Of a DNA stretch of 64,000 nucleotides, positions 2,334-51,789 are shown piece by piece. Source of the DNA: Candidatus Omnitrophota bacterium (lineage in GTDB: Bacteria; Omnitrophota; Gorgyraeia; Zapsychrales; Zapsychraceae); contig JADFYJ010000009.1 in assembly GCA_015233115.1 (NCBI GenBank), forward strand, positions 12,163-76,162. Reading direction: 5' to 3'. Both the position numbers and the translations under genes were made by a program. Below the pieces are notes generated by a model that saw only the letters and a program-made list of their open reading frames with translations, was not told the origin of the DNA and made no database searches. How positions within the stretch are numbered: position 1 is the stretch's first letter; each line of letters begins with the position of its first letter.

Positions 2334-3602
2334 ATGTACGATAAAGAAATATTAAAAAATGGTTTACGATTGGTTACGCATCATATGGGCCAACGTAATA
2401 GCATCGCTTTAGGAATTCTCATCGGGGCTGGCGGGCGTTATGAGAACACTAAAATTAAGGGTGTCGCGCATTTTATTGAACATATGGCGTTTAAAGGCAG
2501 CCAAAAATACGCATGCGAAGAGATTAAAGAAAAGATTGAAGGCGTAGGGGGAAGTTTGAATGCTTTTACTTCTGAGGAGCAGACTTGTTTTTACGCCAAG
2601 ATTCCTTCGAAACATTTTGAGCAGACCTTTGACATTTTAGCTGACATTGTTTTTTTTCCAAAACTAACCACTAAGGATGCGAATAAAGAAAAAGCTGTCA
2701 TTGCGGAAGAAATTAAAATGTACGCGGATCAGCCTCAGCATCATGTTTATGATGTGTTAGAAAAATTAATGTGGGAGGATCATCCGCTAGGTCAGGGTTT
2801 GGCGGGCACGGTTGAATCTGTGATGGGTATGAGCAGGCAGGATCTTTTGAAATTTCATCAAGAACATTATACGGCGTCGAACACGGTAATCGGGATTGCT
2901 GGCGAGGTCGATAACACAAAAATCATGCGGACAATCAAACAAAAATTGGCAGGATTAGATAAAAAGGAAATTCCGGGTTTTGTTCCTGGCCATTTGGAAC
3001 AAAGTCACTCTCGTTATAAGATCGCGCATAAAAAAACTGAACAAATGCATTTGATTTTAGGTTTGCCTGGATTGCATGAAGAGCATAAAGACCGTTATAA
3101 ATTAAGTCTGTTGACGACAATTTTAGGCGGTAATATGTCTAGCCGTTTGTTTAATGAGGTGCGTGAAAAACGTGGCTTGGCCTATTCGATCGGCTGCAGT
3201 GTCAAATTTTTACATGATACGGGTCTTTTTGCTGTGCGCGCAGGTGTTGATAACCGTAAATTGGTCCAGGCTTTTGATTTGATCGTGAAAGAATTGAATA
3301 AAGTAAAAAAATATGGTGTTACCGAAGACGAATTTACCCGCGCTAAAGATTATTTAGTAGGTCAATTGCTTCTGAGCCTGGAAGATACCATGGACCATAT
3401 GTTATGGATGGCAGAGTGGGTGATGCAGCACAACAAAGTCAAGACTGTCAAAGAAGTCCTTGATGATTTTGCGAAAATTAAGCGTCAAGACATCCAAGCC
3501 ATTGCCCAAGAGATTATTGATGAAAATAAATTTAATTTAGCCATTGTTGGGCCGGTCAACAAGGAACAGGAATCAGAGTTGAAGGGGATTTTACAAATTT
3601 AA
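2334..3602 (+). CDS. M16-family (insulinase/pitrilysin-like) zinc peptidase
   Basis: HFIEHMAFKG inverted zinc motif (HxxEH). Length about 420 aa, typical of M16B. Confidence 0.8.
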   Translation: MYDKEILKNGLRLVTHHMGQRNSIALGILIGAGGRYENTKIKGVAHFIEHMAFKGSQKYACEEIKEKIEGVGGSLNAFTSEEQTCFYAKIPSKHFEQTFDILADIVFFPKLTTKDANKEKAVIAEEIKMYADQPQHHVYDVLEKLMWEDHPLGQGLAGTVESVMGMSRQDLLKFHQEHYTASNTVIGIAGEVDNTKIMRTIKQKLAGLDKKEIPGFVPGHLEQSHSRYKIAHKKTEQMHLILGLPGLHEEHKDRYKLSLLTTILGGNMSSRLFNEVREKRGLAYSIGCSVKFLHDTGLFAVRAGVDNRKLVQAFDLIVKELNKVKKYGVTEDEFTRAKDYLVGQLLLSLEDTMDHMLWMAEWVMQHNKVKTVKEVLDDFAKIKRQDIQAIAQEIIDENKFNLAIVGPVNKEQESELKGILQI

Positions 3603-3626
3603 AGTCAGAAGGTCAGAAGTCAGAAT
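3603..3626 (+). repeat. Heptamer tandem array GTCAGAA x3 after the M16 peptidase gene
   Basis: AGTCAGAAGGTCAGAAGTCAGAA. Confidence 0.6.
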
Positions 3627-3762: not shown

Positions 3763-6700
3763 ATGATGAATAATCGAATACGCCAAAAATTTATTTCTGG
3801 TCTTATGGTGATTTTTTTTACTATAGGATCAATTGTGCCTTCTTACGGTCAGGCATTTATTTCGCAAGCCGGAATCATGCCCTCAACGCCTGTTACGTTA
3901 AGCCCAACATTTAATCTTCCTTTGTTGACCGGTATAAAGGTTTATCCTGATAAACCGTTTCGTTTTGATTTCATTATTTCCCGCGGAGCGGGCAATAATG
4001 ACCCTGAGCGACTAACAGGAGTCGAAGGGTTACAATTGAAAAAAGAATCCGAAACGCTGATCAAATATTTTCTTGCCTCATTAACTGTTCCGGAAAAAGA
4101 TTTATGGGTGAATTTATCTCCGCAAGAAAAAAGCCGCATCATCACTAAAGAATTCGGCGAAACAGAAATGGGTCGCGATTTGCTTGCCCAGGATTACATT
4201 TTAAAACAACTCACGGCTAGTTTAATGAGTCCTGACGGGGAAGTAGGTCGGGAATTTTGGGATGCCGTGTATTTAAAAATTTATGAAAATAGAAGGGAGA
4301 ATATAGAAGATAGACAAGCAACAAAAAACAAAACAACTTTATCAGTCGCTTCTAATCTATCTTCTCCTGTCTATCATCTATCTTCTGGTAATTTAGAGGT
4401 TCCAACAAATATTCTAAGCAAAGTATGGATTATTCCTGAGAAAGCAGTCATTCTTGAAAAACCGCCTAATTCTGATCAGCCGAATGCGACCGCGTATATT
4501 GCGGAAGCCAAATTAAAGGTGATGATGGAAGATGATTATTTTATTGAAAAGAGAAGAGAGAATTTAGAAGATAGACAAACAACAAAAAACAAAACTGCAT
4601 CCGTTGGTTCTAATCTATCTTCTTCCGTCTATCCTCTATCGTCTTTAATCAAGAAAATTATCATTCCTGTCCTTGAAAAAGAAGTCAATGAAGGTAAGAA
4701 TTTTGCTCAACTGCGTCAAGTGTATCATTCGCTCATTTTAGCCGCTTGGTATAAACGTAAAATCAAAGAAAGCCTTTTGTCTTCTATATACGTAGATAAA
4801 AAGAAAATTCAAGGTATTAATATCATTGATCCGGCCATGGCTGAAAAAATCTGGACAGAGTACGTAGAAACCTTTAAAAAAGGTGTGTTTAATTTTATTA
4901 AAGAAGAATACGACCCGGTTAAACAAACTATTGCTCCGCGCAAATATTTTTCCGGCGGGCTGACTATGGCCATGGATGCCGCGCTCTTAGTCCGTCCGCT
5001 TGAAACCAATCAAACCATGCTTCCGTTAGAGAATTTGCGACGCGAAATGGTGATTGAAACCAATTTTGAGTCAGTAAATCAGGCCCAACCCACAACAGAT
5101 CATGCTATGGTTGAAGAGCTGGAGTCACTCAGACAAGTTAAACATGAAATTGACAATTTATTAACTGGATGGGAAGGATATTGGCAGATTTTGGAACAAG
5201 GTAAAATTATCGAACGCGAAGATGGTTTAACTATGGCCATTAATGCGAGGATTGAAAAAATAAATGAATTTTCATTAAATATTAAATATGAAGTTTTTAA
5301 TTTGTCCAAGTCTCCTGACTTAAATTCTGCAGATACTCAGCAATGTTTAACTCACCTTAAAGAATTTTTAAGAGAAACCGATTATTTGTCACAGGAAATC
5401 AGTGTTTTAGTCAAAATTATGGCGCTTAAAAATCCTGCGCTTGAGCAAAATAAATATTTTAATGATTTTTCCCGTTTGCTTGAGTCAATGAATTACGCGA
5501 TTCACAAACTTATAGCTGGGGATTATGATTTTGAGCGGCTTGAACCGGCGCTGGTTGATTTAAATTATGTACTTCATCGTGATGTGAATTTAATTAGGAG
5601 TGATGCTGGTATCAGGGTTATTGAAAATTATGCTCCGGACATTAAATTAATTCCGCTCGATGAAATGAAATTTTTTCATGTGTTCATGAATTTGTTAAAG
5701 AATGCCAAAGAAGCGATGATGAGCAAAGGTGAAATCACGATTAGCACGGAGAAAGAAAGCAATTTCGTGAATATTATTGTGTCGGATGTGGGCCCAGGCA
5801 TTCCTGAAGAAATATTGCCGCAGGTCTTTGATAGTGGCTTTACTTATGAAAAAATTAATGGAAATGGCTTTGGATTGGCGATTTGTAAAAAAATAGTCGA
5901 AGCACATGGAGGAACCATTACGGTGGAAAATATTCCCGGACCGAGCGGCAGCCCTGCAGGAGCGCGGTTTATTATCCGTCTGCCGGCGAATGTTGATGCG
6001 GCAATGATTACTTCCGAGGCTGGTTTGTCACCGGCGCACACAACACAACTCAATATGTATCCAGTTACAGCAGGTTCATTGATTGAAAATAATCCACATA
6101 AATATATTTTTGTCGTTAATCATAACATGGGTTCTGAAAGGCGGGGCCAGGTAATCAGAAATGTATATCGGACAATGTTAAATATATTTGGTAATGATAA
6201 TCGGCTTTTTCCTACGCCTTTTTGGTGGATGGGCTGGGGAGGGAAAAAAAAAGCTTTAGTTATATTTCAAAAGCTTGTAACAGAATTGGTCAGCAACTCA
6301 CACCATGCGAAAGACCGTGATGGTAATTATGAAGATGTATTTTTTCAACTTACCACCCAAAATGTCGCTCATCAAAAATATTTATCGCTTGAAGTTTGGA
6401 ACAATTATATGGGTATTCAAAATATTCCTTGGGCAGTAAAAAGGCAAAACACCACCGGAGACACGCCTGGAATGGGATTGCCGTTTATCATCGATTTTTT
6501 GGTTTATAGTTTTGGGGGTCAAGTATCTATCGAGTCCGAAGGTGTAGGTTATAGATTTTCATCGAAAAGAAAAGTTTGGGGTAAAGATCCTAATGCCATC
6601 AGTAGCAAATTTTCATCTACTGTTAATAGGGGGGCAAAAATTTCTATTCTTATTCCATTTGCATTAATTGATTCGGCCATGATAAATACTGAAAAAGTTT

Positions 6701-8043
6701 TGCAGCCTACAGTTTTTGATTTGAAAAAAATTATTCCAACTGAATTACATGACAAAAAAGTTCGGATTATATTAATGGCGGATAATACCGGTACGCTCAT
6801 GGATAAATACGATCGTCCCATGGATGATAGAATTGCGGAGGGATTGCGCGCCTTAGTTGATAATACGGATAATATAATTGTGGTTAATTCCGGTGACCCT
6901 AAGGCGGCTATCGAACATGCGCATCGCAGTGTTTTGCTAGGGGCCAAGAAAGGCGCTCATCTACAATATCCTCTGACCTGGGAAGGCGGAACTTCAATCG
7001 GAACGTTTAATGATGATTTGAAATTAGAAATAACTGATAAAATTCCTGATTGGAAGGAACCATTACGGCATGAATTAATCTCCAATCTCGCCAAGATTTT
7101 TTATGACCAGGTTGAAAAGTTACTGAATGAAGGGAAGCTGACCGAGAGGATTCCAGGATTGACGCTGGATAAATTGGAAAAGGACCGGGAGCGTGCCAAA
7201 ACGGTTATTGATAATAAATATCTTTCCGGTAAAGGGAGCATTGTTTCTCCGGGTGATGAAAAAAATGTGGCAGTTTATTTATTGCCTGAATTTTTCGGGA
7301 AAGGCGGATATATATACGACTCTGGAGCCAAAGTGGCCCTAGATGTTGTTGATATGCTTGATAAAACCAAATTTTTGACACTGAAACATTTCAAAGATAT
7401 TGAATTGAAGGCCTTTTGCATGGTCGGGAGTTTAAAGAATACAACCGGCCCGATAAAAGTTTACGCGGGAAAAAATTTTTTAGATATCTCCGCCGTGACG
7501 AAAGCAGATTCGGTTAGAAAAATTATATATAATTCTGATATACAGAAAAATAGTAACGAATTCGTTACCCTTTATGTTGTAATGGGTGATTCTGGTAATG
7601 ATATCCCGACGATAAATTCAGAAATGGGATATCAAAAAAGTAATGGTTATAACCTTTCATTCTTTTTGTCCCATAGCCCTGAGTATGCCGGTGATCTTAA
7701 TCAAAATGTTTTTATTACAGAAAGCGAGCATGTTAACGCTGCCATTCAAGTTTTGGAGTGGCTAAATACTTTTAGCGGTAAAACAATTGCTGAAAGTGGG
7801 CCATTCAATGCTCTCACTTGGCAAACGTCTTCATCAGACGCGGCGATGACCGTAAAGGCTGTAAACGGAGGGATTGACTTAAACTCTGTTAATAAAATTC
7901 TCCATACCCAAAATACAGAAGATGCGATTCGGTTTCATGTTGATCCGGCTATGCGGCAATATTGGCATGATTCGTCTGGGTTTGTGCCGGTTATCATAAA
8001 CATTTTTCTCCTGAGTAATCTTAGGAAATTTTTGGAGATATAG
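3763..8043 (+). CDS. Giant secreted multidomain protein (1426 aa). Shared novel N-terminal module, a histidine-kinase core (H-box plus HATPase_c) and a long C-terminal region.
   Basis: Signal-peptide-like N-terminus. N-terminal about 350 aa are paralogous to the next gene (YPDKPFRFDFII, WVNLSP, TEMGRDLLAQDY, EKEVNEG, KEEYDP). VKHEIDNLL H-box. N/G1/F/G2 boxes (LLKNAKEAM, VSDVGPGIP, GNGFGLAI) around nt 5650-5990. Two in-frame repeat-element inserts at 4287-4386 and 4548-4650. Confidence 0.75.
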   Translation: MMNNRIRQKFISGLMVIFFTIGSIVPSYGQAFISQAGIMPSTPVTLSPTFNLPLLTGIKVYPDKPFRFDFIISRGAGNNDPERLTGVEGLQLKKESETLIKYFLASLTVPEKDLWVNLSPQEKSRIITKEFGETEMGRDLLAQDYILKQLTASLMSPDGEVGREFWDAVYLKIYENRRENIEDRQATKNKTTLSVASNLSSPVYHLSSGNLEVPTNILSKVWIIPEKAVILEKPPNSDQPNATAYIAEAKLKVMMEDDYFIEKRRENLEDRQTTKNKTASVGSNLSSSVYPLSSLIKKIIIPVLEKEVNEGKNFAQLRQVYHSLILAAWYKRKIKESLLSSIYVDKKKIQGINIIDPAMAEKIWTEYVETFKKGVFNFIKEEYDPVKQTIAPRKYFSGGLTMAMDAALLVRPLETNQTMLPLENLRREMVIETNFESVNQAQPTTDHAMVEELESLRQVKHEIDNLLTGWEGYWQILEQGKIIEREDGLTMAINARIEKINEFSLNIKYEVFNLSKSPDLNSADTQQCLTHLKEFLRETDYLSQEISVLVKIMALKNPALEQNKYFNDFSRLLESMNYAIHKLIAGDYDFERLEPALVDLNYVLHRDVNLIRSDAGIRVIENYAPDIKLIPLDEMKFFHVFMNLLKNAKEAMMSKGEITISTEKESNFVNIIVSDVGPGIPEEILPQVFDSGFTYEKINGNGFGLAICKKIVEAHGGTITVENIPGPSGSPAGARFIIRLPANVDAAMITSEAGLSPAHTTQLNMYPVTAGSLIENNPHKYIFVVNHNMGSERRGQVIRNVYRTMLNIFGNDNRLFPTPFWWMGWGGKKKALVIFQKLVTELVSNSHHAKDRDGNYEDVFFQLTTQNVAHQKYLSLEVWNNYMGIQNIPWAVKRQNTTGDTPGMGLPFIIDFLVYSFGGQVSIESEGVGYRFSSKRKVWGKDPNAISSKFSSTVNRGAKISILIPFALIDSAMINTEKVLQPTVFDLKKIIPTELHDKKVRIILMADNTGTLMDKYDRPMDDRIAEGLRALVDNTDNIIVVNSGDPKAAIEHAHRSVLLGAKKGAHLQYPLTWEGGTSIGTFNDDLKLEITDKIPDWKEPLRHELISNLAKIFYDQVEKLLNEGKLTERIPGLTLDKLEKDRERAKTVIDNKYLSGKGSIVSPGDEKNVAVYLLPEFFGKGGYIYDSGAKVALDVVDMLDKTKFLTLKHFKDIELKAFCMVGSLKNTTGPIKVYAGKNFLDISAVTKADSVRKIIYNSDIQKNSNEFVTLYVVMGDSGNDIPTINSEMGYQKSNGYNLSFFLSHSPEYAGDLNQNVFITESEHVNAAIQVLEWLNTFSGKTIAESGPFNALTWQTSSSDAAMTVKAVNGGIDLNSVNKILHTQNTEDAIRFHVDPAMRQYWHDSSGFVPVIINIFLLSNLRKFLEI

Positions 8044-11000
8044 ATGTTTCAAACACTTCATAAAAATTTTTGGAGGATGAGAGCTTTTTGCTCCATTTTT
8101 ACAGGTGTTATTTCGCTTGTTTTTTGTGTGCCTTTAGGGTATAGCCAGATGATTTCCGGAACTGCGGCGCTATATTCTAATAACGCATCAGGACTGACAG
8201 CGTCTTATGCTCCAACGATTGTGCGGGGAATTAATGTTTATCCGGATAATCCTTTAAAGTTTGACTTTATAATTGATAAAGGCCAATCTAAATTAGGCCC
8301 AACGGCCTTTGAACAAGAATCGCAGAAATTAATCCGTTATTTTTTAGCCTCTGTAACTATTCCCCAAAAAGACATGTGGGTCAATTTGTCTCCCACCGAA
8401 CCTGACCGGATTATTCCTCAAATATTCGGCCAGACTGAAATGGGGCGTGATCTTTTAACTCAAGATTATTTACTTAAACAGCTCACCGCGGCTTTATTAC
8501 GTCCTGACAGTGAAGTTGGAGCCAAGTTTTGGGATGCTGTGTATTCAAAAATTTATGAAGAAAGAAAAGACCGTTCATCAAACAATTTCGACATTCCTGC
8601 AGATATTCTAAGCAAAATTTGGATAGTGCCTGATACCGCTCAATTATCTGAGCATGACAAAGGTGTCGATATCGTTAACACGCATTTGAAAGTAATGACG
8701 GAAAATGAATATTTTAATGATCAGTCTTCTCCTGTCTACCCGTTATCTTCTTTAATCAAACAAATAATCCTTCCCGCGATTGAAAAAGAAGTGAATGAAG
8801 GTCAAACTTTTTCTAATTTGCGTCAAATTTATAACTCAATGATTTTAGCCAAATGGTATAAAGCACGACTTAAGCAAAGTTTATTGGGACAAGTTTATGC
8901 TAATAAAAATAAAATAAATGGTGTTCGCATTAAAGATCGAATACAGATCAATGATATTTATAATAAATATTTAGAGATATTTAAGCTGAGCGTTAATGAA
9001 ACCATAAAAGAAGAATATGACCCTGAAGCTGGAAAGATCGTAGCGCGGAAATATTTAAGCGGGGGGTATGCTGGACAAAATGCTGACTACGCGATGGTTG
9101 ATGAGACTGACCCTTCGAAGGAACAGCCTGCCATAGATCCTGTAAAAGTAACGGTTGAGTTGTTCGGTCAAATGAATCCGTCGTCGGATAACAGGCAGCT
9201 TCTTAAAGCGGCTGGACATCTATTGGATGCGGAACATGCTAGACTAGATCAGTCCAATTATTGGAAAGCTCGCTTAATGCAAATTTTAGATATATCTTTA
9301 CCTCCGAATTTTGATTGTGAATTGAACCATCCTAATGCGGTCAATATGTCGGATTCGGATATTTATGAAAAAATCAAAAGGTATGGGACATTCATTAAGA
9401 TTTTTATGGAAAAAATTCCATATTATAAATTAGTGGCGGTGATATTTACGAAAGATTGGCAATTGAAATTTATAGAAAAAAGTAATGATAATAATCTTGA
9501 TGAAACAACTTATTATTTTACTGATGACGGAAGATTAGAAACGGAAGTGGCGTCCGTTAAAGATATCGGTATTTTAGATTTTTTGCAATTAGACCCCCGG
9601 ATCTCGCAGTATTTAACTTCTTCGAATGTTAATCCCATGATTCATAATGGAAAAACTGTTTTATTGACTGGAGCAGGATATATCGGCTCTGCGATTATTA
9701 GTACGTATTTGCAATATGGCACTCAAGTTATTATTTACGATCGAAACCCTTATAAAAGTGAGTATTTATCTTTAGTTGCTAATCACAAAAATGTCATTAT
9801 TGTCAGAGGAGATTTAAATGACCCGGATCGGCTAAGATCGGAAGTCATGGATAAGTATCACATTGACCTGGTGGTGCATTTGGCAGGAGTCACTTCTCCT
9901 CGAGAATCTATGAATTATCCTGAAAAGTATTTTCATGAAAACATATTAGGAACAATGAATCTATTGCATGCGATGAGCAAATACCAAATTAAACATTTTA
10001 TTTTTGCTTCTACGGCTGATGTCTATGGCGGAAATGAAGAGATGTTCGATGAGCGGGATGAGACTTATCCGGGAAATCCTTATAGTGAAAGTAAGTGGCT
10101 CTTGGAGATAATGGCAGAATATTTTTCTAAACAATATGGATTTAATTATGTGGCCTTTAGGATTTTTAACGCGGCTGGGGCTTTTTTTGATAACCCTTTA
10201 CATAGCGATGACGGACAATATTTTGGGGAGATTAACCGGACATCATTATTGGCTCGGGCTATTGAGTCGCAGTTAAGGCCGCAGGAGGTGACATTAACTA
10301 TCATGGGAAAACCGGTGAGAGATTTTATTCATATTAAAGATATTGCCAATGCCTGTTTAAAAGCATCAGCATACTTATACGTTGGTGAGGAAAATTTAAC
10401 TTTGAATTTGGGCACAGGAAGAAAAACGAGTGTTCCCGATGTAATAGATATGCTTAAAAAAATTTTTATTGAAAATGGAAGAGTTTGGCATGAAATTACT
10501 CAAGGGCCAGCCGTAGCTGGATCAGTGCAGCAATCAACCGCGGATTTTTCAAAGGCGTTTAATAAAATAGGCTGGTGGCCTGAGTATTCACTGACCAGTA
10601 TTCTGCGCACAGCCGTGTTATTTCATTTTCAGCAATTTATACGGGGAGATCATCCAGTCAACGCGAATGAATCTGTTTCTGATAACATTCTACCCCAGCC
10701 GGAAATTTTTGCGAAAAAAGTTTATGATCAAGTTGGGAAAGACACCGAGATGGTGAATTCCTTTAAATTTGAAATTTTATTCCGTTTGTTGGTTGATGTA
10801 TTAACTGCTTTACCAGATAAAGATAGGCGCCGGAATGCACTTCTTAAAAACGCAAGTGATATTAAAGCTCAAACAGGAAATGCTATTGATGCCATTGCTG
10901 ACAAGAAGGCTGGACAAAGATTTTGGGAAAAGTTCGGAGAGTATATACTTTCCTATTGGGATTTGGATCCTATTTATCAGCAAATATTTCTCGAATTGAA

Positions 11001-11256
11001 TGCTCTTATGAAAAAAGAGAAAGGTTTCAATATTGATACGTTGAAATATTTTCCTAATTCGAAACAAGACGATAATGCTTTGTTAACAAAAGGCGGTATT
11101 GATTTTAATTCTGATCATGTTGTTTTGAGCGTTAATCAAGCTGACGGGAAATTTGATTTTAAAATTGATCCGGTTTTGATGGAACAATATCAGCATGTTG
11201 AAATTTTGCAAATTAAAATTCTCCAAATACTACCTATGAAGAATTTGACTGATTAA
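8044..11256 (+). CDS. Giant secreted multidomain protein (1070 aa). Same N-terminal module fused to an NAD-dependent epimerase/dehydratase (GalE-like) domain.
   Basis: ATG at 8044 directly follows the TAG of the upstream gene. N-terminal paralogy to 3763..8043. Rossmann motif LLTGAGYIGS and YSESK (YxxxK) catalytic motif around nt 9640-10600. Confidence 0.75.
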   Translation: MFQTLHKNFWRMRAFCSIFTGVISLVFCVPLGYSQMISGTAALYSNNASGLTASYAPTIVRGINVYPDNPLKFDFIIDKGQSKLGPTAFEQESQKLIRYFLASVTIPQKDMWVNLSPTEPDRIIPQIFGQTEMGRDLLTQDYLLKQLTAALLRPDSEVGAKFWDAVYSKIYEERKDRSSNNFDIPADILSKIWIVPDTAQLSEHDKGVDIVNTHLKVMTENEYFNDQSSPVYPLSSLIKQIILPAIEKEVNEGQTFSNLRQIYNSMILAKWYKARLKQSLLGQVYANKNKINGVRIKDRIQINDIYNKYLEIFKLSVNETIKEEYDPEAGKIVARKYLSGGYAGQNADYAMVDETDPSKEQPAIDPVKVTVELFGQMNPSSDNRQLLKAAGHLLDAEHARLDQSNYWKARLMQILDISLPPNFDCELNHPNAVNMSDSDIYEKIKRYGTFIKIFMEKIPYYKLVAVIFTKDWQLKFIEKSNDNNLDETTYYFTDDGRLETEVASVKDIGILDFLQLDPRISQYLTSSNVNPMIHNGKTVLLTGAGYIGSAIISTYLQYGTQVIIYDRNPYKSEYLSLVANHKNVIIVRGDLNDPDRLRSEVMDKYHIDLVVHLAGVTSPRESMNYPEKYFHENILGTMNLLHAMSKYQIKHFIFASTADVYGGNEEMFDERDETYPGNPYSESKWLLEIMAEYFSKQYGFNYVAFRIFNAAGAFFDNPLHSDDGQYFGEINRTSLLARAIESQLRPQEVTLTIMGKPVRDFIHIKDIANACLKASAYLYVGEENLTLNLGTGRKTSVPDVIDMLKKIFIENGRVWHEITQGPAVAGSVQQSTADFSKAFNKIGWWPEYSLTSILRTAVLFHFQQFIRGDHPVNANESVSDNILPQPEIFAKKVYDQVGKDTEMVNSFKFEILFRLLVDVLTALPDKDRRRNALLKNASDIKAQTGNAIDAIADKKAGQRFWEKFGEYILSYWDLDPIYQQIFLELNALMKKEKGFNIDTLKYFPNSKQDDNALLTKGGIDFNSDHVVLSVNQADGKFDFKIDPVLMEQYQHVEILQIKILQILPMKNLTD

Positions 11257-19448: not shown

Positions 19449-19529
19449 TTATTTGGTTGTTGGTTTTTTGTTATTGGTTGCAGGAATAATCTGATTTTGT
19501 TTAAAAACTATCAACTCACAAATTTATTT

Positions 19530-20678: not shown

Positions 20679-20684
20679 TAAAAA

Positions 20685-22697
20685 ATGTTGTCAAAAATAG
20701 CGTTAAAAATGGTGTCTGCTCTCGGCGCATTGCGTCGGGATCAGACACTTTTTTTAAAAATTTTATTTTTTGTTTTACTTTTTTCTTTACTCGCGGTTTT
20801 TTATTGCCCGCGTATTCAACTGCATACGGCGGATTTGGGCCGCCACATCAAAAATGGAGAAATTTTTTTAGCTCAGCATAAAATTATTTCCACTAATTTT
20901 TATTCATACACAGAGCCGGATTTCTCAGCTGTCAATCATCATTGGGCAGCAGGTGTGGCTTTTTTTTTAGTCTGGAAATACTTTGGATTTACTGGTTTGT
21001 CATTATTTTATATGGGAATTTTATTGGCTGCTTTCTCGATTATTTTTTTCTGTGCCGTTCGCCTGTCGAATTTTTGGATTGCTTTTTTTTATTCTGTATT
21101 GTGCTTGCCGTTATTAGTCAGCCGGCTGGAAATCCGCCCTGAAGGCTTTAGCTATTTATTTTTAGCGTTGATGATATGGTGTTTACTGTGTCTCAACCGG
21201 TATCTGTGCCAAGACCGGTTTCTGAACTCGACTGCGAATTCTCGCTCGACATCATTTTTTCAAACATTTCTTTTTATTTCTATTATTTTAATCCAAATTC
21301 TTTGGGTCAACTTTCATATATATTTTATTTTCGGTCCATTCTTAGTCGGCATGTGGTGCCTGAACCGGTGTCTGAACTCGACTGTAATTTTATCGAATGT
21401 TTATGGTTTGTGGTTTTTGTTTTTTGGAAAAAACAAATTATATCAACAACCAGCAACCAATAACCAACAACCACCAACCAACAATTTTATTTTACGAGAT
21501 CAGACACTAGGTATTTTGTTTATTGCTGTTATTTTGGCTTGCTTTATTAACCCCGCTGGAATCAAAGGGGCGTTAGAACCTTTTAATATTTTTAAAGAAT
21601 ACGGATATATGCTGGCTGAAAATCAATCTCCAATTTTTATGTTTAAAAGATTTCCCCAGGAGGGATCATATTTATATTTCATGATAATTTTTGGAGTGTC
21701 CGTATTAGTGTGGGGGGCATATACTTGGTGTCTGATCTCGGCTGAAAATTTATTTGCTGTTGATAGTTTTTGGTTTTTGGTTTTTGGAAAAAACAAATTA
21801 TTTCAGCAACCAGCAACCAGCAACCAACAACCAACTACCAACAAGTATATTTTACGAGATCTGACACCGTTTATTCTTGATAAGACACCAGATATTTTAT
21901 TTTTTATAATCTATTTTTTATTTTCTATTTTGGTCTGGAAAATGATTCGCGGAATGGTCCTTTGGGCACTAATCTCGATACCAATTTTAAGTTATATAAC
22001 CTGGTGTCTGATCTCGGCTGCGCATAGGCTTTTGCCATGTACTCGGCAGGAAGTTTTCGTTCCGGATCAACAGGTTTCTGGCCGAGATCTGACACCATTT
22101 TTTCAGTTTATTTTAATAATTCTAGGCATGATTGGCCTACTTTTTGGCCTAATCGGAAAAAACAACATTTACTCGCCTTATCAAAAAAATTATTTGTCTG
22201 CTATTGTCCCACAAACTCAACATTCTTTTTGGTGGTTTCCGAATGTTTTGCGCGAATTTAATAAATTACCAGGAACCATGCCCGGCGCAGAATCAGCTGC
22301 GAATTTTTTTAAACAAAATCATTTGCAGGGGCCTATATTTAACAACTATGATATTGGGGGATATTTGATTTTGAGTCTGTTTCCAGAAAAGGTTTTCGTT
22401 GATAACCGGCCTGAAGCGTACAGCGTTGATTTTTTTAAAAATACATATGTCCCGATGCAGGAAAATGACAATGAGTGGTTCGCGCAAGATCAGAAGTACC
22501 ATTTTAATGTCATTTTCTTTTATCGACATGATTTGACACCTTGGGGACAGTCTTTTTTAATCCGTCGTATACGGGATCCGCAATGGGCGCCAGTATTTGT
22601 GGATGCGTATACTTTGATCCTGGTCAAACGTGAAGGAAAAAATAAAGGAGTGATTGAAAAATATGAGTTACCTCAAGAAATTTTTCAAGTGTATTAA
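20685..22697 (+). CDS. Polytopic membrane protein (GT-C/ArnT-like fold suspected) carrying five in-frame MITE-family inserts
   Basis: Continuous 670-aa ORF. Many TM helices and a C-terminal soluble domain. MITE copies A-E are embedded in frame (see mobile_element entries). Confidence 0.6.
   Translation: MLSKIALKMVSALGALRRDQTLFLKILFFVLLFSLLAVFYCPRIQLHTADLGRHIKNGEIFLAQHKIISTNFYSYTEPDFSAVNHHWAAGVAFFLVWKYFGFTGLSLFYMGILLAAFSIIFFCAVRLSNFWIAFFYSVLCLPLLVSRLEIRPEGFSYLFLALMIWCLLCLNRYLCQDRFLNSTANSRSTSFFQTFLFISIILIQILWVNFHIYFIFGPFLVGMWCLNRCLNSTVILSNVYGLWFLFFGKNKLYQQPATNNQQPPTNNFILRDQTLGILFIAVILACFINPAGIKGALEPFNIFKEYGYMLAENQSPIFMFKRFPQEGSYLYFMIIFGVSVLVWGAYTWCLISAENLFAVDSFWFLVFGKNKLFQQPATSNQQPTTNKYILRDLTPFILDKTPDILFFIIYFLFSILVWKMIRGMVLWALISIPILSYITWCLISAAHRLLPCTRQEVFVPDQQVSGRDLTPFFQFILIILGMIGLLFGLIGKNNIYSPYQKNYLSAIVPQTQHSFWWFPNVLREFNKLPGTMPGAESAANFFKQNHLQGPIFNNYDIGGYLILSLFPEKVFVDNRPEAYSVDFFKNTYVPMQENDNEWFAQDQKYHFNVIFFYRHDLTPWGQSFLIRRIRDPQWAPVFVDAYTLILVKREGKNKGVIEKYELPQEIFQVY
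20712..20749 (+). mobile_element. MITE-family copy A (38-bp hairpin form, in-frame inside ORF 20685..22697)
   Basis: GGTGTCTGCTCTCGGCG-cattg-CGTCGGGATCAGACAC. Confidence 0.5.
21187..21260 (+). mobile_element. MITE-family copy B (degenerate fragment, in-frame)
   Basis: Shares ACCGGTTTCTGAACTCGACTG with copies C and G. No intact TIRs. Confidence 0.35.
21355..21507 (+). mobile_element. MITE-family copy C (long form, in-frame)
   Basis: GGTGTCTGAACTCGACTG ... GGTTTTTGTTTTTTGGAAAAAAC ... (CAACCA)n ... TTTTACGAGATCAGACAC. Confidence 0.65.
21727..21868 (+). mobile_element. MITE-family copy D (long form, in-frame)
   Basis: GGTGTCTGATCTCGGCTG ... TTTTACGAGATCTGACACC. Confidence 0.7.
22004..22097 (+). 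mobile_element. MITE-family copy E (94 bp with a different core, in-frame)
   Basis: Perfect 19-bp TIRs GGTGTCTGATCTCGGCTG / GGCCGAGATCTGACACC. Confidence 0.65.
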
Positions 22698-23589
22698 TCA
22701 TATACGGTGTCTGATCTCGACTGTAATTTCATCGAATGTTCATGGTTTGTGGTTTTGGGTTTTTGGAAAAAACCAATTATTTCAAAAACCAGCAACCAAT
22801 CACCAACAACCAACAACTAACAATTTTATTTTACGAGATCTGACACCGTTACTCGCTGCCTTTTTATTATTTGCCACACCATCGTTCGCTGTCGTTGATT
22901 TTACCGGAGATGTGAACGAATTTATTAAAAATAATCCTGATGGTCAAAAATTTGATTTCATGAGTCGTTATATCGAAACTTTGGGGTATTTGGAGTCGAA
23001 TGAAAAACTTTCAAAACAATTTATTGATGTGAATTTATTGACTGCTCCTGCTGATAAAGTTAAAACTTATTTGGACGCTTTAGTCAACGCGAATGTGAAT
23101 TTACGGGTGTCGCGTAATTACTTAAAACGTTACGGGGCAGTGAATAATGGTTTGATCCGAAAGGTTGTCCAGGATTTTCAATTGGCATGTGATGAGTTGA
23201 TAACTAATAATCAGGGGGAAAGATTATTAGTAGAAAAAATTTATAACGCACAAATGAACCATCAAAAAAGATCAGGGATGAATACAAAGGAATTTTCTTC
23301 GCGCATTGAACAATTAACTGAACAACGACGAGGGACATCAACGAAAATACTGCAAACTTCTATGTGGGCCAGTAAAGTGTTGATCAGTAACAAAGTTGAT
23401 AAATTTGGCAGTTTGTACATGCTTGGGATATCCGCTGATCAACGGAAAGAATTGCTAGAACAGTTATCAAAATATAAAGGTAAAGAATATCGGGGAGAAT
23501 TGCGTCCTGGGCAGTCTTTTTTGCAAGCTAGTATAGCCGCTATCGCTGCGATCCTAGAAGATGAAAGCTGGGGAAATTTAACTAATTGA
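22654..23589 (+). CDS. Secreted hypothetical protein. The N-terminus is encoded by MITE copy F.
   Basis: The ORF passes through the MITE, then a signal-peptide-like LLAAFLLFATPSFA. No canonical start codon downstream of the MITE before the signal peptide. Confidence 0.5.
   Translation: MKNMSYLKKFFKCINHIRCLISTVISSNVHGLWFWVFGKNQLFQKPATNHQQPTTNNFILRDLTPLLAAFLLFATPSFAVVDFTGDVNEFIKNNPDGQKFDFMSRYIETLGYLESNEKLSKQFIDVNLLTAPADKVKTYLDALVNANVNLRVSRNYLKRYGAVNNGLIRKVVQDFQLACDELITNNQGERLLVEKIYNAQMNHQKRSGMNTKEFSSRIEQLTEQRRGTSTKILQTSMWASKVLISNKVDKFGSLYMLGISADQRKELLEQLSKYKGKEYRGELRPGQSFLQASIAAIAAILEDESWGNLTN
22707..22847 (+). mobile_element. MITE-family copy F (long form, forms the 5' end of ORF 22654..23589)
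   Basis: GGTGTCTGATCTCGACTG ... TTTTACGAGATCTGACACC. Confidence 0.7.
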
Positions 23590-26549: not shown

Positions 26550-27518
26550 ATGTCGAAAACATTACAACTAACTTGGTGTCTGGCTAACAGGTGTCTGAAC
26601 TCGACTTTAAATGTGTCGAATGTTGATGGTTTGTGGTTTTCGGTTTTTGGAAAAAACCAATTATTTCGACAACCAACAACCAACAACCAACAACCAACAA
26701 CCAACAATTTTATTTTACGAGATCTGACACCAATTCTTTTAAATTATATTCTAACCTCGCACTTAAAGATCAATCCGTTTGATATTATTGAACAGACGGA
26801 TAAGCGTCAAACTTCATTTAAATTTTATCCTTCCACCCGTCAACAAGCCCGCCAGTTAATGAGGCAATTTAATCAGTTACATATTCAAAATGTTTCGGTA
26901 AAATTGGAGGTTTTGCAAGATCAGGATTGGCAAAATAAATGGAAAAAAGATTTTAAGCCTTTTGCGTTAACGTCAGATCTGACCATCGTGCCAGCATGGT
27001 TAAAAGAGAATTATATTTTTATCGACAGCCATCTCGCATTTGGAACCGGCCTGCACGAAACAACCCGTTTTATGACTGAGCTGATTAAATCAGTTAAGGG
27101 ACAATTTTCCACTTTTTTAGATATTGGTACTGGAACGGGTATATTGACGTTGGCCGCGCTTAAATATGGGGCCAAAGACGTAACCGCTATGGACATCAGC
27201 GAAGACTGTGTCACAAACGCGAAAGCGAATTTTGCGTTAAACGGGGTCAGTAAATATCGGTTATTTTGTAAAGATTTTGCCAAGATGCCAGCGCATAAAA
27301 CATATGACTTGGTTGCTGCCAATTTGGTTTCTCATGATTTATTGGCTATGTCAGAAAAAATTATTTCACGCGTTAATAAAACCGGATATTTAGCCATTTC
27401 CGGCATATCGTTGGATAATTTTGAAGCTGTAAAAACCAAATTTTCAAAATCGCTTAATTGCGTAAAAATAAAAAAAGGCAAAACCTGGGCAGCTTTATTA
27501 TATAAAAACGGTGTCTGA
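26550..27518 (+). CDS. prmA: Ribosomal protein L11 methyltransferase. The N-terminal about 60 codons run through MITE copy G.
   Basis: FGTGLHETTRFM and LDIGTGTGILTLAALKYGA SAM-binding motifs. The stop codon lies inside the TIR of MITE copy H. Confidence 0.8.
   Translation: MSKTLQLTWCLANRCLNSTLNVSNVDGLWFSVFGKNQLFRQPTTNNQQPTTNNFILRDLTPILLNYILTSHLKINPFDIIEQTDKRQTSFKFYPSTRQQARQLMRQFNQLHIQNVSVKLEVLQDQDWQNKWKKDFKPFALTSDLTIVPAWLKENYIFIDSHLAFGTGLHETTRFMTELIKSVKGQFSTFLDIGTGTGILTLAALKYGAKDVTAMDISEDCVTNAKANFALNGVSKYRLFCKDFAKMPAHKTYDLVAANLVSHDLLAMSEKIISRVNKTGYLAISGISLDNFEAVKTKFSKSLNCVKIKKGKTWAALLYKNGV
26575..26731 (+). mobile_element. MITE-family copy G (long form, at the 5' end of prmA)
   Basis: GGTGTCTGGCTAACAGGTGTCTGAACTCGAC ... 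(CAACCAACAA)n ... TTTTACGAGATCTGACACC. Confidence 0.7.
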
Positions 27519-27652
27519 TCTCGGCTGCCCGTAGATTGATAGTTGATAGTTTATGGTTTTTGGTTTTTGGAAAAAACAAATTATCTCATCAACCAGCAGC
27601 CAACAACCATCAACTCTATTTTACGGGATCTGACACCATTTATTTGACACCA
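27510..27652 (+). mobile_element. MITE-family copy H (contains the prmA stop codon; intergenic)
   Basis: GGTGTCTGATCTCGGCTG ... TTTTACGGGATCTGACACC, then a partial duplicate ATTTATTTGACACCATTTATT. Confidence 0.7.
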
Positions 27653-33479: not shown

Positions 33480-33702
33480 AACATGTAACAATGCAAAATC
33501 GGATAATCGTAAAGCGATTTGTTCCTAATAATCGGCTGTTACCAAATTAATGCTTTTGTATTTATATTTGAATCAATTCACTATTATTTTGAATTTTTAA
33601 TAATTGTATATAAAATAAAATAAATGGTTTTTTGAGTTAATCAGTTTTTTTGTTTTATCGTTTTTTCATTTTCGCATTGTCAAGTTTTTAAAAGGGGTTC
33701 CC

Positions 33703-34671
33703 ATGGCGAGTGTATTATTTTTATTGTTGATTATCATCGTTGCCGCGGCATTATGTGCTGTTTCCGAAGCGGCGTTGTTAAGTTTATCTTCGATTAAAGT
33801 GAGACTCATGGTCGAAGATAATAAGCCCAATTCTAAAGATTTATTTTTTTTGAAGGAAAATATTTCGCAGTCCATTGCGTCGATTGTTATTCTTAACAAT
33901 ATTATTACTATTGTTGGATCGATTTTTATTGGTGAATTGGTGGTTATTCGATTTGGGAATAAATGGCTGGGATGGACATCTGCCATTGTGACCATGTTGA
34001 TCATTGTATGCGGCGAGATTGTGCCTAAGACTTTTGGAGAGCGGTATAAAGAAACGATTGGTTTAATTATTGCCAAACCATTCCGTTTTATTGTTTGGGT
34101 TTTAAAACCTGTGGTTTTTTTAACCACGCAATTATCTAAGCCTTTTATTGAAGGCAAGACTGCGCCGCGGGTAACGGAAAAAGAAATTCGAGCGATGTTG
34201 TCATTGGCCCGGAAAGAAGGCACAGTTGAGAGGGACGAAGAGATTTTGTGTCATCGGGTGTTTAAATTGAATGATGTGAGGGCTGTTCATATTATGCGGC
34301 CTATTGATAGTATTTTCGCTTTTTCTGCGGATAAGTCACTGGAAAATTTAAAAGATGAGATTATCAACGCGCGCTATAGCCGGATTGCTGTGTATGATAA
34401 AGATCCGGCAGATATTGTGGGAATGGTTCAGCATCGAGTTTTGTTAAGGGAAATAGCTAAAGATAATTATAAAGCAACAGTTAGGGATTTTATGGTGCCT
34501 CCAATTTTTGTGAATTGGTTTATCCGCGCGGATGAACTGTTGGAAAAATTTCAGGCCTATCATCAGCATTTATTTGTAGTACAAGATTCACAAGGGAAAG
34601 ACGTGGGCTTGGTTTCGATGGAAGATGTTTTGGAAGAACTGTTTGGGGAGATTTTTGATGAAAAAGGGTGA
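33703..34671 (+). CDS. CNNM/CorC-family transporter-associated protein (DUF21 plus CBS pair plus CorC_HlyC)
   Basis: Four N-terminal TM helices, tandem CBS motifs and a C-terminal transporter-associated domain. Confidence 0.75.
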   Translation: MASVLFLLLIIIVAAALCAVSEAALLSLSSIKVRLMVEDNKPNSKDLFFLKENISQSIASIVILNNIITIVGSIFIGELVVIRFGNKWLGWTSAIVTMLIIVCGEIVPKTFGERYKETIGLIIAKPFRFIVWVLKPVVFLTTQLSKPFIEGKTAPRVTEKEIRAMLSLARKEGTVERDEEILCHRVFKLNDVRAVHIMRPIDSIFAFSADKSLENLKDEIINARYSRIAVYDKDPADIVGMVQHRVLLREIAKDNYKATVRDFMVPPIFVNWFIRADELLEKFQAYHQHLFVVQDSQGKDVGLVSMEDVLEELFGEIFDEKG

Positions 34672-36768: not shown

Positions 36769-39201
36769 ATGGATAAATTCATTTGCATACACGGACATTT
36801 TTATCAGCCGCCAAGGGAAAATCCTTGGTTGGAGGCTATTGAGGTCCAGGAATCAGCCTATCCTTACCGCGATTGGAACGAACGGATCATGGCGGAATGT
36901 TATGAGCCTAATACCGCTTCTCGTATTGTGGACGCAGAAGGCCGGATTGTTGATATTGTTAACAATTATTCGAAAATGAGTTTTAATTTTGGGCCAACCT
37001 TACTGTCGTGGATGGAGACGAATGCTCCAAAAGTTTATCAAGCGATTATTGACGCGGATAAAGAGAGCATGAAGAAATTTAATGGACATGGCTCTGCTAT
37101 CGCGCAAGTTTACAATCACATAATTATGCCATTGGCAAATACCAATGATCAATATACTCAAGTGTTATGGGGGATTAAAGATTTTGAATACCGGTTTGGC
37201 CGCAAACCCGAAGGGATGTGGTTGGCAGAAACGGCTGTGGACTTAGCAACGCTGGATATCATGGTTGAACTGGGTATTAAATTTACGATATTAAGTCCGT
37301 ATCAGGCAGCGAGTATCCGTCCCATAGATTCCGAAAGGGATTGGAGCGACGCGTCAGGGGGCAAGATCGATCCAAAAATTCCGTATTTATGCAAGCTGCC
37401 ATCAGGAAAGAGCATGGCGATCTTTTTTTATGATGGGCCTATTTCGCGGGATGTCGCTTTTGGAGAGATGTTAAAAAATGGGGAACTTTTCGCGCACCGT
37501 CTTTTGTCGGTTTTTCCGGCGCAGAGTGATGGGCCTTTGTTGTCGCATATATCGACGGACGGAGAAACATATGGTCATCATCAGAAGTTTGGGAATATGG
37601 CTTTGGCTTATTTGTTGGATTATATTGAACGGAATAATTTAGCTAAGATCACGATTTATGGCGAATTTTTAGAAAAATCCGCGCCGCGGCATGAAGTAAA
37701 AATTGTGGAGAAATCAGCGTGGAGCTGCAGTCATGGCGTGGGACGATGGGAATCGGATTGCGGGTGTTGTATTGCTCATAAAGCCGGTTGGAATCAGAAA
37801 TGGCGGCGTGGTTTGAGAGATGCCATGAATTGGCTGAGAGATGAGCTCAGAATAGTTTTTGAAAAAGAAATGGCAACTTTTACGTCAAATCCATGGTTGA
37901 TCCGGAACAAATATATCGAGGTTGTTTTAGATCGTTCCAAAGATAATGTGGATAAATTTTTTAAAGCAAATTTTAAGGACAATTTAGGCTTAAAAGAACG
38001 CGGTCAAATTTTGAAATTGTTGGAAATGCAACGTTATGCCTTATTCATGTTTACCAGCTGCGGCTGGTTTTTCGACGATATCTCTGGCCTTGAACCGGTG
38101 CAGATTATGCAATATGCGGCGCGGGCCATGCAATTGGCGCATGAATTTTCAGGCATTGATTTAGAACCGGGATATTTAGACCGAATTAAATTGGCAGAAA
38201 GTAATGTGCCGGGTCAATATAACGGAAAAAATATATATTTAAAACACGTCAAGCCGGCGATGATTGATTTATTAAAAGTCGGCGCGCATTACGCGATTTT
38301 TTCTTTATTCAGTAATAAAGCGGAAAAAAATCATTTTTATTCTTTTACGGCAGAACTGCAAAAATCTGAGCGCGAAGAACATGGGAGGCAAACTTTTTTG
38401 ACCGGACAAGCGGTTATTTTTTCCGATATAACCATGGACAAGAAAATGATTGATTTCGCGGTGGTTCATATGGGCGATCATAATATTATCTGTGGTGTCA
38501 GAGAGCATAAAAATGAAGATTTGTTTACGGCCGTACAGCAAAATGTGCGAAAGGCGTTTTTTCAGAATGATGTGGGCGCGTTAAAGGCCACTATCCATGC
38601 CAATTTTGGGCTGCATACATATACCTTGTGGGATTTATTTCATAATGAACAAGGGTTGGTCTTAAATAAAATTTTTGAAGAAACTGTGGGTTTAATTGAA
38701 GATAATTTTCGGCAGATTTATGATCAGTATTATCCGTTGATAAAATTACCTGATCAAATTAAGGTATCTTTGCCCAAGCCGCTAGCTATGACTGTAGAAT
38801 TTATTTTGAATCGTGATTTGATGGACGCTATTGAAAGCGATGAGCTGGATGTCCCTAAATTGGAACGGTTGGTTAATGAGATATTGCGGTGGGGATTTAT
38901 GAGGGATAAAGAAAGCATTGCTTTAAAGGCTGGGCATCGAATTGCGCATTGGATGGAGCGTTTAGCTCAAGATACGGATAATGTTTTGCTGATTGGAAAT
39001 ATTGAATCTATGATGCGGTTGTTGCACAAATTATCATTTAATTTAAATATTTGGCGATCACAAAATATATATTTTCAAATCGCGAAAGCGGTTCATCATG
39101 TAAAATATGAAAAAGCAGTCAAGAACGACACGCAAGCTAAATTTTGGATCGAGTCGTTTGATAAGTTAGGCAAAGTGTTACAGGTAAAATTAAAAAATTA
39201 A
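36769..39201 (+). CDS. Glycoside hydrolase family 57 protein (alpha-glucan processing)
   Basis: N-terminal CIHGHFYQPPREN. GH57 layout, 810 aa. Confidence 0.8.
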   Translation: MDKFICIHGHFYQPPRENPWLEAIEVQESAYPYRDWNERIMAECYEPNTASRIVDAEGRIVDIVNNYSKMSFNFGPTLLSWMETNAPKVYQAIIDADKESMKKFNGHGSAIAQVYNHIIMPLANTNDQYTQVLWGIKDFEYRFGRKPEGMWLAETAVDLATLDIMVELGIKFTILSPYQAASIRPIDSERDWSDASGGKIDPKIPYLCKLPSGKSMAIFFYDGPISRDVAFGEMLKNGELFAHRLLSVFPAQSDGPLLSHISTDGETYGHHQKFGNMALAYLLDYIERNNLAKITIYGEFLEKSAPRHEVKIVEKSAWSCSHGVGRWESDCGCCIAHKAGWNQKWRRGLRDAMNWLRDELRIVFEKEMATFTSNPWLIRNKYIEVVLDRSKDNVDKFFKANFKDNLGLKERGQILKLLEMQRYALFMFTSCGWFFDDISGLEPVQIMQYAARAMQLAHEFSGIDLEPGYLDRIKLAESNVPGQYNGKNIYLKHVKPAMIDLLKVGAHYAIFSLFSNKAEKNHFYSFTAELQKSEREEHGRQTFLTGQAVIFSDITMDKKMIDFAVVHMGDHNIICGVREHKNEDLFTAVQQNVRKAFFQNDVGALKATIHANFGLHTYTLWDLFHNEQGLVLNKIFEETVGLIEDNFRQIYDQYYPLIKLPDQIKVSLPKPLAMTVEFILNRDLMDAIESDELDVPKLERLVNEILRWGFMRDKESIALKAGHRIAHWMERLAQDTDNVLLIGNIESMMRLLHKLSFNLNIWRSQNIYFQIAKAVHHVKYEKAVKNDTQAKFWIESFDKLGKVLQVKLKN

Positions 39202-39202
39202 A

Positions 39203-39330
39203 GAAAATAGAAGAGCGAAAAGAGAAAATAGAAAAACAAAAATCATAAATTGTTACGAAAAAAATATTTTTTATTATCAGTCGTTTTTTTGTTTGTCTAA
39301 CATCTATCGTCTATTTTCTATCTTCTTGTT
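39203..39330. repeat. Intergenic module between the GH57 gene and malQ: inverted AGAAAAT/AGAAGAG-type arrays flanking an AT-rich core
   Basis: AGAAAATAGAAGAGCGAAAAGAGAAAATAGAAAAAC ... TTATCAGTCG ... CATCTATCGTCTATTTTCTATCTTCTTG. Confidence 0.6.
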
Positions 39331-39353
39331 AACTTAATTTTGAAAGGGTTGTT

Positions 39354-50752: not shown

Positions 50753-50763
50753 ATAAAGCATAT

Positions 50764-51778: not shown

Positions 51779-51789
51779 ACAACTTTTAT

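Follow-up and report, generated by a model that had tools for sequence, protein, structure and literature searches.

A probable dispersed palindromic element, akin to the Rickettsia palindromic elements, carried in-frame by a gene of a Candidatus Omnitrophota bacterium

Introduction

How does a sequence that resembles an intergenic hairpin come to lie twice within one intact open reading frame (ORF), and how does the encoded protein bear it? The question is raised by a stretch of 64,000 nucleotides (nt) from a Candidatus Omnitrophota bacterium (GTDB family Zapsychraceae; assembly GCA_015233115.1, contig JADFYJ010000009.1, positions 12,163 to 76,162 of the forward strand), called the window below, in which two imperfect palindromes (copies A and B) are found inside a giant gene (gene 1) and a third (copy C) is found between two other genes. 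A preliminary description, made from the letters of the window alone, had proposed that A and B are insertions of an intergenic module, that the tandem paralogue of the host (gene 2) lacks both, and that they represent a second element family tolerated in-frame. Here we compare the three copies with each other, with homologous proteins and with large sequence collections, and argue that they are probably a lineage-specific, dispersed selfish palindrome that is similar in kind to the Rickettsia palindromic elements (RPEs).

Three colinear copies of a palindrome

All three copies are on the + strand, with A and B 261 nt apart in the same ORF (Table 1), and the positions first given for them were right to within 2–6 nt. 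Their parts follow one order. A purine-rich left arm of about five heptamers of the GAAGATA type (GAAAATA GAAGGGA GAATATA GAAGATA ...) comes first; next are a stretch rich in A (ACAAAAAAC) and a unique core; and a right arm, pyrimidine-rich and made of about five complementary TCTATCN-type heptamers, comes last. Tandem Repeats Finder (TRF) reports period-7 arrays at 4285–4314 (4.3 units, copy A), 4614–4644 (4.4 units, B) and 39202–39235 (4.9 units, C), and as inverted repeats the arms reach 30 nt with 73% complementarity in A and 42 nt with 74% in C. Each copy folds as a long imperfect hairpin, with free energies (dG) of -22 to -34 kcal/mol; relative to dinucleotide shuffles, the z-scores range from -2.7 to -4.8. 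The folding is significant for either strand (dG of copy A: + strand, -23.8; - strand, -34.0), and a consensus stem of 27 pairs is common to the three. Copy C starts 2 nt past the TAA of a GH57-family gene (36769–39201) and its end lies 27 nt upstream of the start of malQ (39354–40847), occupying most of the 152-nt spacer between them.

The likeness extends beyond general architecture. Identity is 84% between A and B (blastn E 1.7e-24) and 65%, over 127 nt, between A and C (E 2.7e-7; 7.4e-9 in the reciprocal search from C). Just 5' of the right arm, A and C have the exact TTATCAGTCG in common, worth 21.4 bits in a composition-weighted test (p=7e-4), and in the whole window this 10-mer occurs at 4339 and 39274 only; the corresponding core of copy B, CATCCGTTGG, has diverged from it. 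An nhmmer profile of the three copies, run on the 64 kb, recovers these as the only full copies, together with a partial match at 8718–8752. A two-arm pattern built from the copies gave 3 matches in the window against 0 in 100 shuffles, where the three matches hold by construction and the informative part is that there are no stray ones. Because, beyond the core match, the three copies agree in how their parts are ordered, in a non-canonical second heptamer and in which single frame is open (see below), we accept that A, B and C descend, as far as one short core and colinearity can indicate, from one element. The other outcome envisaged at the outset, that the similarity would turn out to be AG-rich low-complexity sequence with no colinear core, is thereby set aside, by a narrow margin and with the unweighted tests, given below, not significant.

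Insertion into gene 1 and tolerance by the protein

The ORF of gene 1 is intact, as is its HATPase_c domain downstream of the palindromes, and it keeps every residue that is invariant across 22 aligned sequences. Its first 420 residues have 1440 homologues at E <=1e-5, all of them unnamed or assigned to Candidatus Omnitrophica/Omnitrophota, the best being 51% identical. At site A, none of 20 aligned homologues has the insert: where the family reads VYxEAxxxFGTTDIP, gene 1 has ~31 extra residues. Only one linker of the N-terminal domain is hypervariable, in both length and sequence, across the family, and it holds site B. The peptide at site A was searched with its flanks against 5.8 billion proteins, and no protein was found that shares even three of its 5-residue words. 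Judged by these alignments and searches, A and B are lineage-specific insertions, because homologues are without insert A, site B lies in a hypervariable linker, and the site-A peptide is unique; in this, and in its translations of both copies, the preliminary description was correct.

The lengths of A and B, 102 and 99 nt, are multiples of three, and each copy is read in the only one of its six frames that is free of stops. The same frame (+0) is open in copy C and the other five are closed; the chance of this frame being open in shuffled C is 0.03, yet in real intergenic windows 14% of frames are free of stops. Were the second heptamer canonical, a TAG would arise in this frame at the GAAGATA|GAA junction, and A, B and C all carry a variant heptamer there. 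The open frame in C and the variant heptamer in all three copies suggest, but do not prove, that the element family is "pre-adapted" to being read through.

In an AlphaFold2 model of gene 1 residues 1–420 (22-sequence alignment; mean predicted local distance difference test score, pLDDT, 71; predicted template-modelling score, pTM, 0.67), the left-arm peptide of insert A, which is charged (ENRRENIEDRQATKNK), lengthens the helix at 160–191, and the right-arm peptide, rich in Ser, Leu and Tyr, forms a low-confidence, disordered coil at 192–214. Likewise, the left-arm peptide of insert B lengthens the helix at 256–272 and is followed by a coil at 273–290 (disordered). Each insert is thus predicted to sit at a fold-compatible position, as a helix extension followed by a low-pLDDT loop. 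YENRRENIEDR and SSPVYHLSSGNLEVP are examples of peptides that span the junctions of the inserts.

The host domain merits a description of its own. The N-terminal domain is ~380 residues long (3763–4900 in gene 1; 8044–9100 in gene 2) and is found fused to HATPase_c, epimerase, HAD and methyltransferase domains; it has no Pfam match, and a Foldseek search of the domain model against the PDB returned nothing at E below 1. Often a conserved C-terminal GGID(L/F)N...PVI motif accompanies it (C-termini near 7900–8040 and 11100–11250), and together the two look like a phylum-specific targeting or sorting architecture.

Table 1. Positions of the palindrome copies, their candidate remnants, the host genes and other repeats (window coordinates, unless a locus label is given)
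Feature	Position	Strand	Description
Copy A	4285..4386	+	102-nt imperfect palindrome, in-frame in gene 1; residues 175-208, ENRRENIEDRQATKNKTTLSVASNLSSPVYHLSS
Copy A, left heptamer arm	4285-4314
Copy A, A-rich stretch			between left arm and core
Copy A, core	4339-4348		TTATCAGTCG
Copy A, right heptamer arm	4356-4386
Copy B	4546..4644	+	99-nt imperfect palindrome, in-frame in gene 1; residues 262-294, EKRRENLEDRQTTKNKTASVGSNLSSSVYPLSS
Copy C	39203..39326	+	124-nt intergenic palindrome; dyad extends to 39194-39341
Copy C, core	39274-39283		TTATCAGTCG
Vestige at site homologous to B	8720..8751	+	32 nt; ATCAGTC + TTCTCCTGTCTACCCGTTATCTTCT; core fragment and right arm minus two heptamers
Possible vestige at site homologous to A	8557..8580	+	24 nt; GAAGAAAGAAAAGAC + CGTTCATCA; left-end/right-end remnant (weak)
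Gene 1 (host)	3763..8043	+	1426 residues; Omnitrophota-specific N-terminal domain, GHKL/HATPase_c domain, other regions, C-terminal GGIDLN motif
Gene 2 (tandem paralogue)	8044..11256	+	1070 residues; same N-terminal domain, NAD-dependent epimerase domain
Second palindromic family	21345-21521	+	five copies in all
Second palindromic family	21703-21888	+
Second palindromic family	22684-22865	+
Second palindromic family	26568-26750	+
Second palindromic family	27504-27649	+
Short-period arrays	15421-15454/15743-15776
Short-period arrays	41507-41548/41730-41766/42842-42913
Short-period arrays	58009-58044/58129-58167
Short-period arrays	60944-60965/61194-61253
Short-period array	3602-3625
Short-period array	19453-19480
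Same-unit (TAGAAGA / TCTATCT) palindrome	L023 940-1045		Bacteroidales
Same-unit palindrome	L021 543-648		Nitrospinota
Same-unit palindromes	L001 7408-7518, 2685-2788		Patescibacteria; two copies in one 8-kb locus
Same-unit palindromes	L013 7620-7741; L009 4643-4766; L022 2056-2157		

Remnants in the tandem paralogue

Gene 2 does not offer the clean empty sites that had been expected of it. It retains a core fragment and most of the right arm at the site homologous to B, read there as SSPVYPLSS where gene 1 has SSSVYPLSS. This vestige is matched by blastn at E 2.7e-4 to 0.002 and by nhmmer at E 0.037; within it TCTTCTCCTGTCTA matches copy A letter for letter, and ATCAGTC agrees with A and C, not with B. 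At the site homologous to A, gene 2 has 5 residues (15 nt) beyond the family consensus, which lie within a 24-nt stretch whose left and right pieces match the ends of copy A at 10 of 15 and 5 of 9 positions; this faint resemblance hints that the stretch may be a remnant of the element.

Across the N-terminal domains, synonymous differences between gene 1 and gene 2 are saturated (the proportion of synonymous differences, pS, is 0.74–0.84), including the segment between the two sites. In two patches (4240–4440 and 4520–4745, against 8510–8640 and 8690–8850), pS falls to 0.50 (residues 159–226, flanking site A) and 0.52 (residues 252–327, flanking site B), where the boundaries of the regions were chosen after a sliding window had been inspected; codon identity at identical residues differs accordingly between the regions (Fisher p=0.007). 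Because A and B differ from each other by a synonymous divergence (dS) of 0.25 and the two genes are saturated, the simplest reading is that the elements would be much younger than the gene duplication. The low-pS patches suggest short gene-conversion tracts centred on the palindromes, through which the elements or their flanks could have been exchanged between the tandem paralogues, and gene 2 would then have lost most of both palindromes through internal deletion. Internal deletion is the usual fate of long hairpins. The alternative to conversion is that elements were inserted independently at the same two sites in both paralogues.

Origin of the copies

We consider it probable, with real room for doubt, that A, B and C are copies of a dispersed, lineage-specific selfish palindrome of RPE-like character that is tolerated in-frame. 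Such an element would be a non-coding, hairpin-forming repeat of ~100–125 nt whose ordinary home is intergenic, as with copy C, and two copies would have landed in the N-terminal domain of gene 1. Their survival there may be explained by lengths that are multiples of three, by translation in the one frame of the element that has no stops, by sites at helix ends or in a linker that the family leaves hypervariable, and by a peptide (a charged part that forms a helix, then a Ser-rich coil) that would be structurally harmless. Mobility of the element and selective neutrality of its insertions are what we infer from this pattern; copying may have taken place by transposition in trans, by hairpin- or recombination-mediated copying, or by gene conversion.

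A number of results weigh against this interpretation. Only three copies and one vestige are visible in the 64 kb, and no further copy was found in GTDB representatives, JGI metagenome contigs or IMG/VR at the stringency used, in collections that did not include the source genome; the word "family" in the preliminary description draws on these three copies and the vestige. What ties C to A and B is colinearity together with the 10-nt core and its p=7e-4. When the cores between the arms of A and C are aligned locally without weighting (Smith-Waterman), the result does not reach significance (p=0.19), and the longest exact match between them is marginal (p about 0.04–0.055); the nulls of these unweighted tests are dominated by A-runs, and the composition-weighted exact-match test was used in place of Smith-Waterman. 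Inspection of the flanks of A, B and C revealed no consistent target-site duplication (AATTTA stands on both sides of A, and gene 2 has this pair as well), the copies show no terminal inverted repeat other than their heptamer arms and AT-rich flanks, and none of the 41 ORFs of at least 150 residues in the window has a transposase, REP-associated tyrosine transposase (RAYT), integrase or Y1/HUH domain. The boundaries of the low-pS regions, set after inspection, belong to the same list. Finally, the likeness of the arms is not by itself proof of common descent, because heptamer-array palindromes of the same unit occur in unrelated phyla.

This last point comes from a scan of 596 Gb of representative genomes with the two-arm pattern, which gave 29 single matches, none of them in Omnitrophota, that are generic heptamer palindromes or chance. 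About one third of the 29 are palindromes of the GAAGATA/TCTATCT unit with clear 7-nt periodicity in both arms (Table 1), and most of the 29 are intergenic; as they were picked by the search pattern, they give no estimate of how frequent such palindromes are. A core-plus-arm pattern gave 3 matches in JGI metagenome contigs, and a scan of IMG/VR viral contigs gave 1, all of them chance.

Palindromes of this unit in Bacteroidales, Nitrospinota, Patescibacteria, Levyibacteriota and others speak for the main rival account, in which this genome forms heptamer microsatellites everywhere by slippage while hairpin-templated repair keeps their arms complementary, with A and B related by local duplication or conversion, their likeness to C largely convergent through use of one favoured heptamer, and no mobile family involved. 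The window itself lends weight to this account. TRF reports 27 rows of period 7 and 12 of period 8, against 1.0 and 1.3 in composition-matched shuffles, and other periods are at background except period 14, a multiple of 7 (9 rows against 0.6). Many of these arrays come in pairs whose units are roughly complementary, one on either side of an intergenic region (pairs at 15421/15743, 41507/41730, 58009/58129 and 60944/61194, for example, are inverted and use other units), and several begin 0–5 nt from an upstream stop codon. Heptamers are over-represented in bacteria and form inverted arrays in Xanthomonas (PMC4692102), and the lack of a convincing target-site duplication and of a transposase in the window, along with the non-significant unweighted core similarity, point the same way. 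Against convergence stand the exact TTATCAGTCG at the same place relative to the right arm in A and C and nowhere else in the window, the part order, non-canonical second heptamer and single open frame common to all three copies, and their presence at two loci 35 kb apart in unrelated genes, and we regard slippage as an unlikely, though by no means negligible, source of the three copies. The habit of forming short-period arrays is in any case lineage-specific, because contigs of two other Omnitrophota show essentially no such excess of periods 7 and 8.

Selection on the protein is an improbable explanation, in which the inserts are an exapted linker module (charged helix plus Ser-rich flexible segment) that tunes the N-terminal domain, the palindrome being its historical vehicle. 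The open frame and the same peptide pattern are kept in both copies, gene 2 keeps its nonapeptide (8 of 9 residues identical to gene 1) in an otherwise hypervariable linker, and other homologues have different inserts at that linker. Between A and B the non-synonymous divergence (dN) is 0.115 and dN/dS is about 0.47, which is below 1, yet it comes from 13 differences with an uncertainty that includes 1, and appears compatible with weak or no constraint on the peptide. Moreover, the peptide is without a relative in any other protein, its right-arm part is predicted to be disordered (pLDDT below 50), gene 2 functions despite the loss of most of both inserts, and the hairpin is kept in the coding copies, which would not be expected from coding selection alone.

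We give very little credence to a role at the RNA or DNA level (mRNA processing or stability, pausing or attenuation, or arrays for a heptamer-reading single-strand-binding protein of cold-shock or S1-like type), with C insulating the GH57 gene from malQ and A and B modulating expression of gene 1: the folding on both strands, the position of C directly after a stop codon and across most of the spacer between two glycogen-metabolism genes, the other arrays that begin 0–5 nt from stop codons (3602, 15421, 19453, 41507) and the proposal that heptamer repeats are protein-binding sites, with CspB binding one heptamer per protein (PMC4679880), are in its favour, but a consensus scan of 38900–39500 around C found 0 terminator-like sites (no short G+C-rich stem with a T-run) and promoter-like matches at chance level, Rfam gave no match at the gathering threshold anywhere in the window, covariation in the stem is uninformative with three sequences only, and a stable hairpin would more probably burden an ORF than serve it.

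Three further candidates were rejected. An assembly artefact does not fit the intact ORF, the diverged copies and their different contexts. A decayed fragment of a paralogous coding region is a poor reading of copy C, given a spacer of only 152 nt and the fact that C is the most complete palindrome of the three. An intrastrand triplex motif (PMC4666352) does not fit arms that are interrupted purine/pyrimidine runs with no third segment.

Other in-frame palindromes

A second palindromic family, ~150 nt long and unrelated to the first, is present in the window. It is bounded by 14-bp terminal inverted repeats (GGTGTCTGATCTCG / CGAGATCTGACACC) and contains heptamer arrays of the form (TGGTTTT)n/(CAACCAA)n. 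Four of its five copies are inside ORFs, where they are translated as ...GLWF.VFGKN.LFQQPATNNQQPTTNNFILRDLTP: two are in-frame in a 670-residue membrane-protein ORF (20685–22697), one is at the N-terminus of ORF 22654–23589, and one is at the N-terminus of the PrmA ORF (26550–27518). Related end fragments (TGACACCATTTATT) are found at 20681–20716 and 47586–47672. To speak of copies A and B as a second element family tolerated in-frame, as the preliminary description did, is thus a fair description.

In P0006, a homologue of the N-terminal domain from another Omnitrophota metagenome-assembled genome (MAG), an unrelated GC-rich palindrome (GTCGTTGCGAG...CTCGCAATGAC; L033 2646–2765; dG -40 kcal/mol) is in-frame at the same N-domain linker as copy B and is translated as VVASEAKQSFKEIAASPSAALRSTSRND; a half-copy of it (L033 1546–1575) is in-frame in the adjacent queA-like (queuosine-synthesis) gene. 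Because of this palindrome and of the second family in the window, in-frame palindromes are recurrent both in Omnitrophota and in the linker of site B.

Two further homologues, P0024 and P0027, read VIARSEATKQS and VIASEAKQS at another loop.

Comparison with known repeat families

RPEs are palindromic repeats of 100–150 bp, both intergenic and in-frame in coding genes at fold-compatible positions, of which a Rickettsia genome carries from tens to hundreds (Ogata et al. 2000 Science 290:347; 2002 Genome Res 12:808; in the summaries of PMC10969869 and PMC1779305). The present copies are 99–124 nt long, palindromic and interspersed, coding (A and B) as well as intergenic (C), and, like RPEs, they lie in-frame in otherwise intact genes, give a peptide in one frame and are not known to have a mobilising enzyme. 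They differ from RPEs in that the host phylum is Omnitrophota and not Rickettsiales, in heptamer-array arms, which have not been described for RPEs, and in the three copies visible. The likeness is one of functional class, set by description, and a sequence relationship to RPE-1 to RPE-10 is not to be expected.

[quoted passage not shown] Unlike them, A, B and C showed neither a discrete terminal inverted repeat nor a cognate insertion sequence in the 64-kb view, and their flanks gave no consistent target-site duplication; the second family of the window, with its terminal inverted repeats, fits the MITE description well. Repetitive extragenic palindromes and the hairpins that they form in pairs (REP/REPIN; mobilised by RAYT; PMC3733652) resemble the element as ~100-nt hairpins of two inverted halves that are extragenic and at gene ends, but A, B and C have no GTAG or CGTC tag at their ends, are AT-rich and not GC-rich, have no RAYT gene in the window and include intragenic copies. 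The functional features of the RPE class that were tested are all present, while membership among MITEs and REPINs fails on terminal repeats or tags and on a cognate enzyme, within the 64-kb view.

Heptameric long simple-sequence repeats (LSSRs) are also alike, being over-represented period-7 arrays that are mostly intergenic, near start or stop codons and sometimes in inverted pairs; examples are the short tandemly repeated repetitive sequences (STRR) of cyanobacteria, the TAACTGA repeats of Beggiatoaceae (PMC4679880) and the GGGAATC arrays of Xanthomonas, some of which are inverted (PMC4692102). In contrast to these, A, B and C form a colinear module with a unique core at unrelated loci, are translated in-frame where they lie in a gene, and are built from different repeat units. 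Palindromic amphipathic repeat coding elements (PARCELs) are comparable as coding DNA that has dyad symmetry and has spread both inside a genome and from one to another; unlike A, B and C, they are tandem 25-residue protein repeats that form whole ORFs and not single inserts of an intergenic element.

Significance

Palindromes in coding sequence have been put forward as something peculiar to Rickettsia, and elsewhere the records of in-frame MITE fusions are for the most part anecdotal. To our knowledge, the searchable literature holds no description of RPE-like coding palindromes in Omnitrophota. Here, a free-living or episymbiotic candidate phylum without a cultured model has two unrelated in-frame families in one 64-kb window and a third in a homologue. 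If this is general, some "hypervariable linkers" and lineage-specific inserts of Omnitrophota would be selfish DNA and not adaptations, and gene callers and domain annotators should take account of in-frame palindromes; the link between the spread of heptamer microsatellites, hairpins and local gene conversion would also be testable in metagenomic population data.

A bolder proposal, which we offer tentatively and do not ourselves rate as the likely case, is that the lineage is a second "Rickettsia-type" genome, in which several unrelated families of heptamer-array palindromes densely colonise coding sequence, and in which palindromes trigger short conversion and deletion tracts between tandem paralogues and so drive the evolution of linkers in a phylum-specific N-terminal domain, the hypervariable linker of this domain having acquired different palindromes independently in different Omnitrophota. 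The density of in-frame palindromes in the window is at least 6 copies in 4 ORFs within 64 kb.

Further features of the window

Other repeats and gene arrangements were noted in passing. At 46566–46851, an 89-nt unit is repeated 3.2 times in tandem with 98% identity and contains GGGCGATCACCCGATCG; the same motif recurs 4 kb away in a palindrome at 50623–50753 with 32-nt arms that are 94% complementary. An ORF with an FGE-sulfatase domain (48834–51537) has a local G+C of 0.49, against about 0.39, and is followed by a gene for a bAvd-like accessory protein, past which 1.5 kb (51538–53050) is without a long + strand ORF. This region resembles a diversity-generating retroelement cassette, possibly one without an intact reverse transcriptase. 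Of the 41 ORFs mentioned above, 40 are on the + strand, the exception (33666–34223) overlapping a + strand ORF, and when the 64 kb is divided into 32 windows of 2 kb, 31 of them have a positive GC skew.

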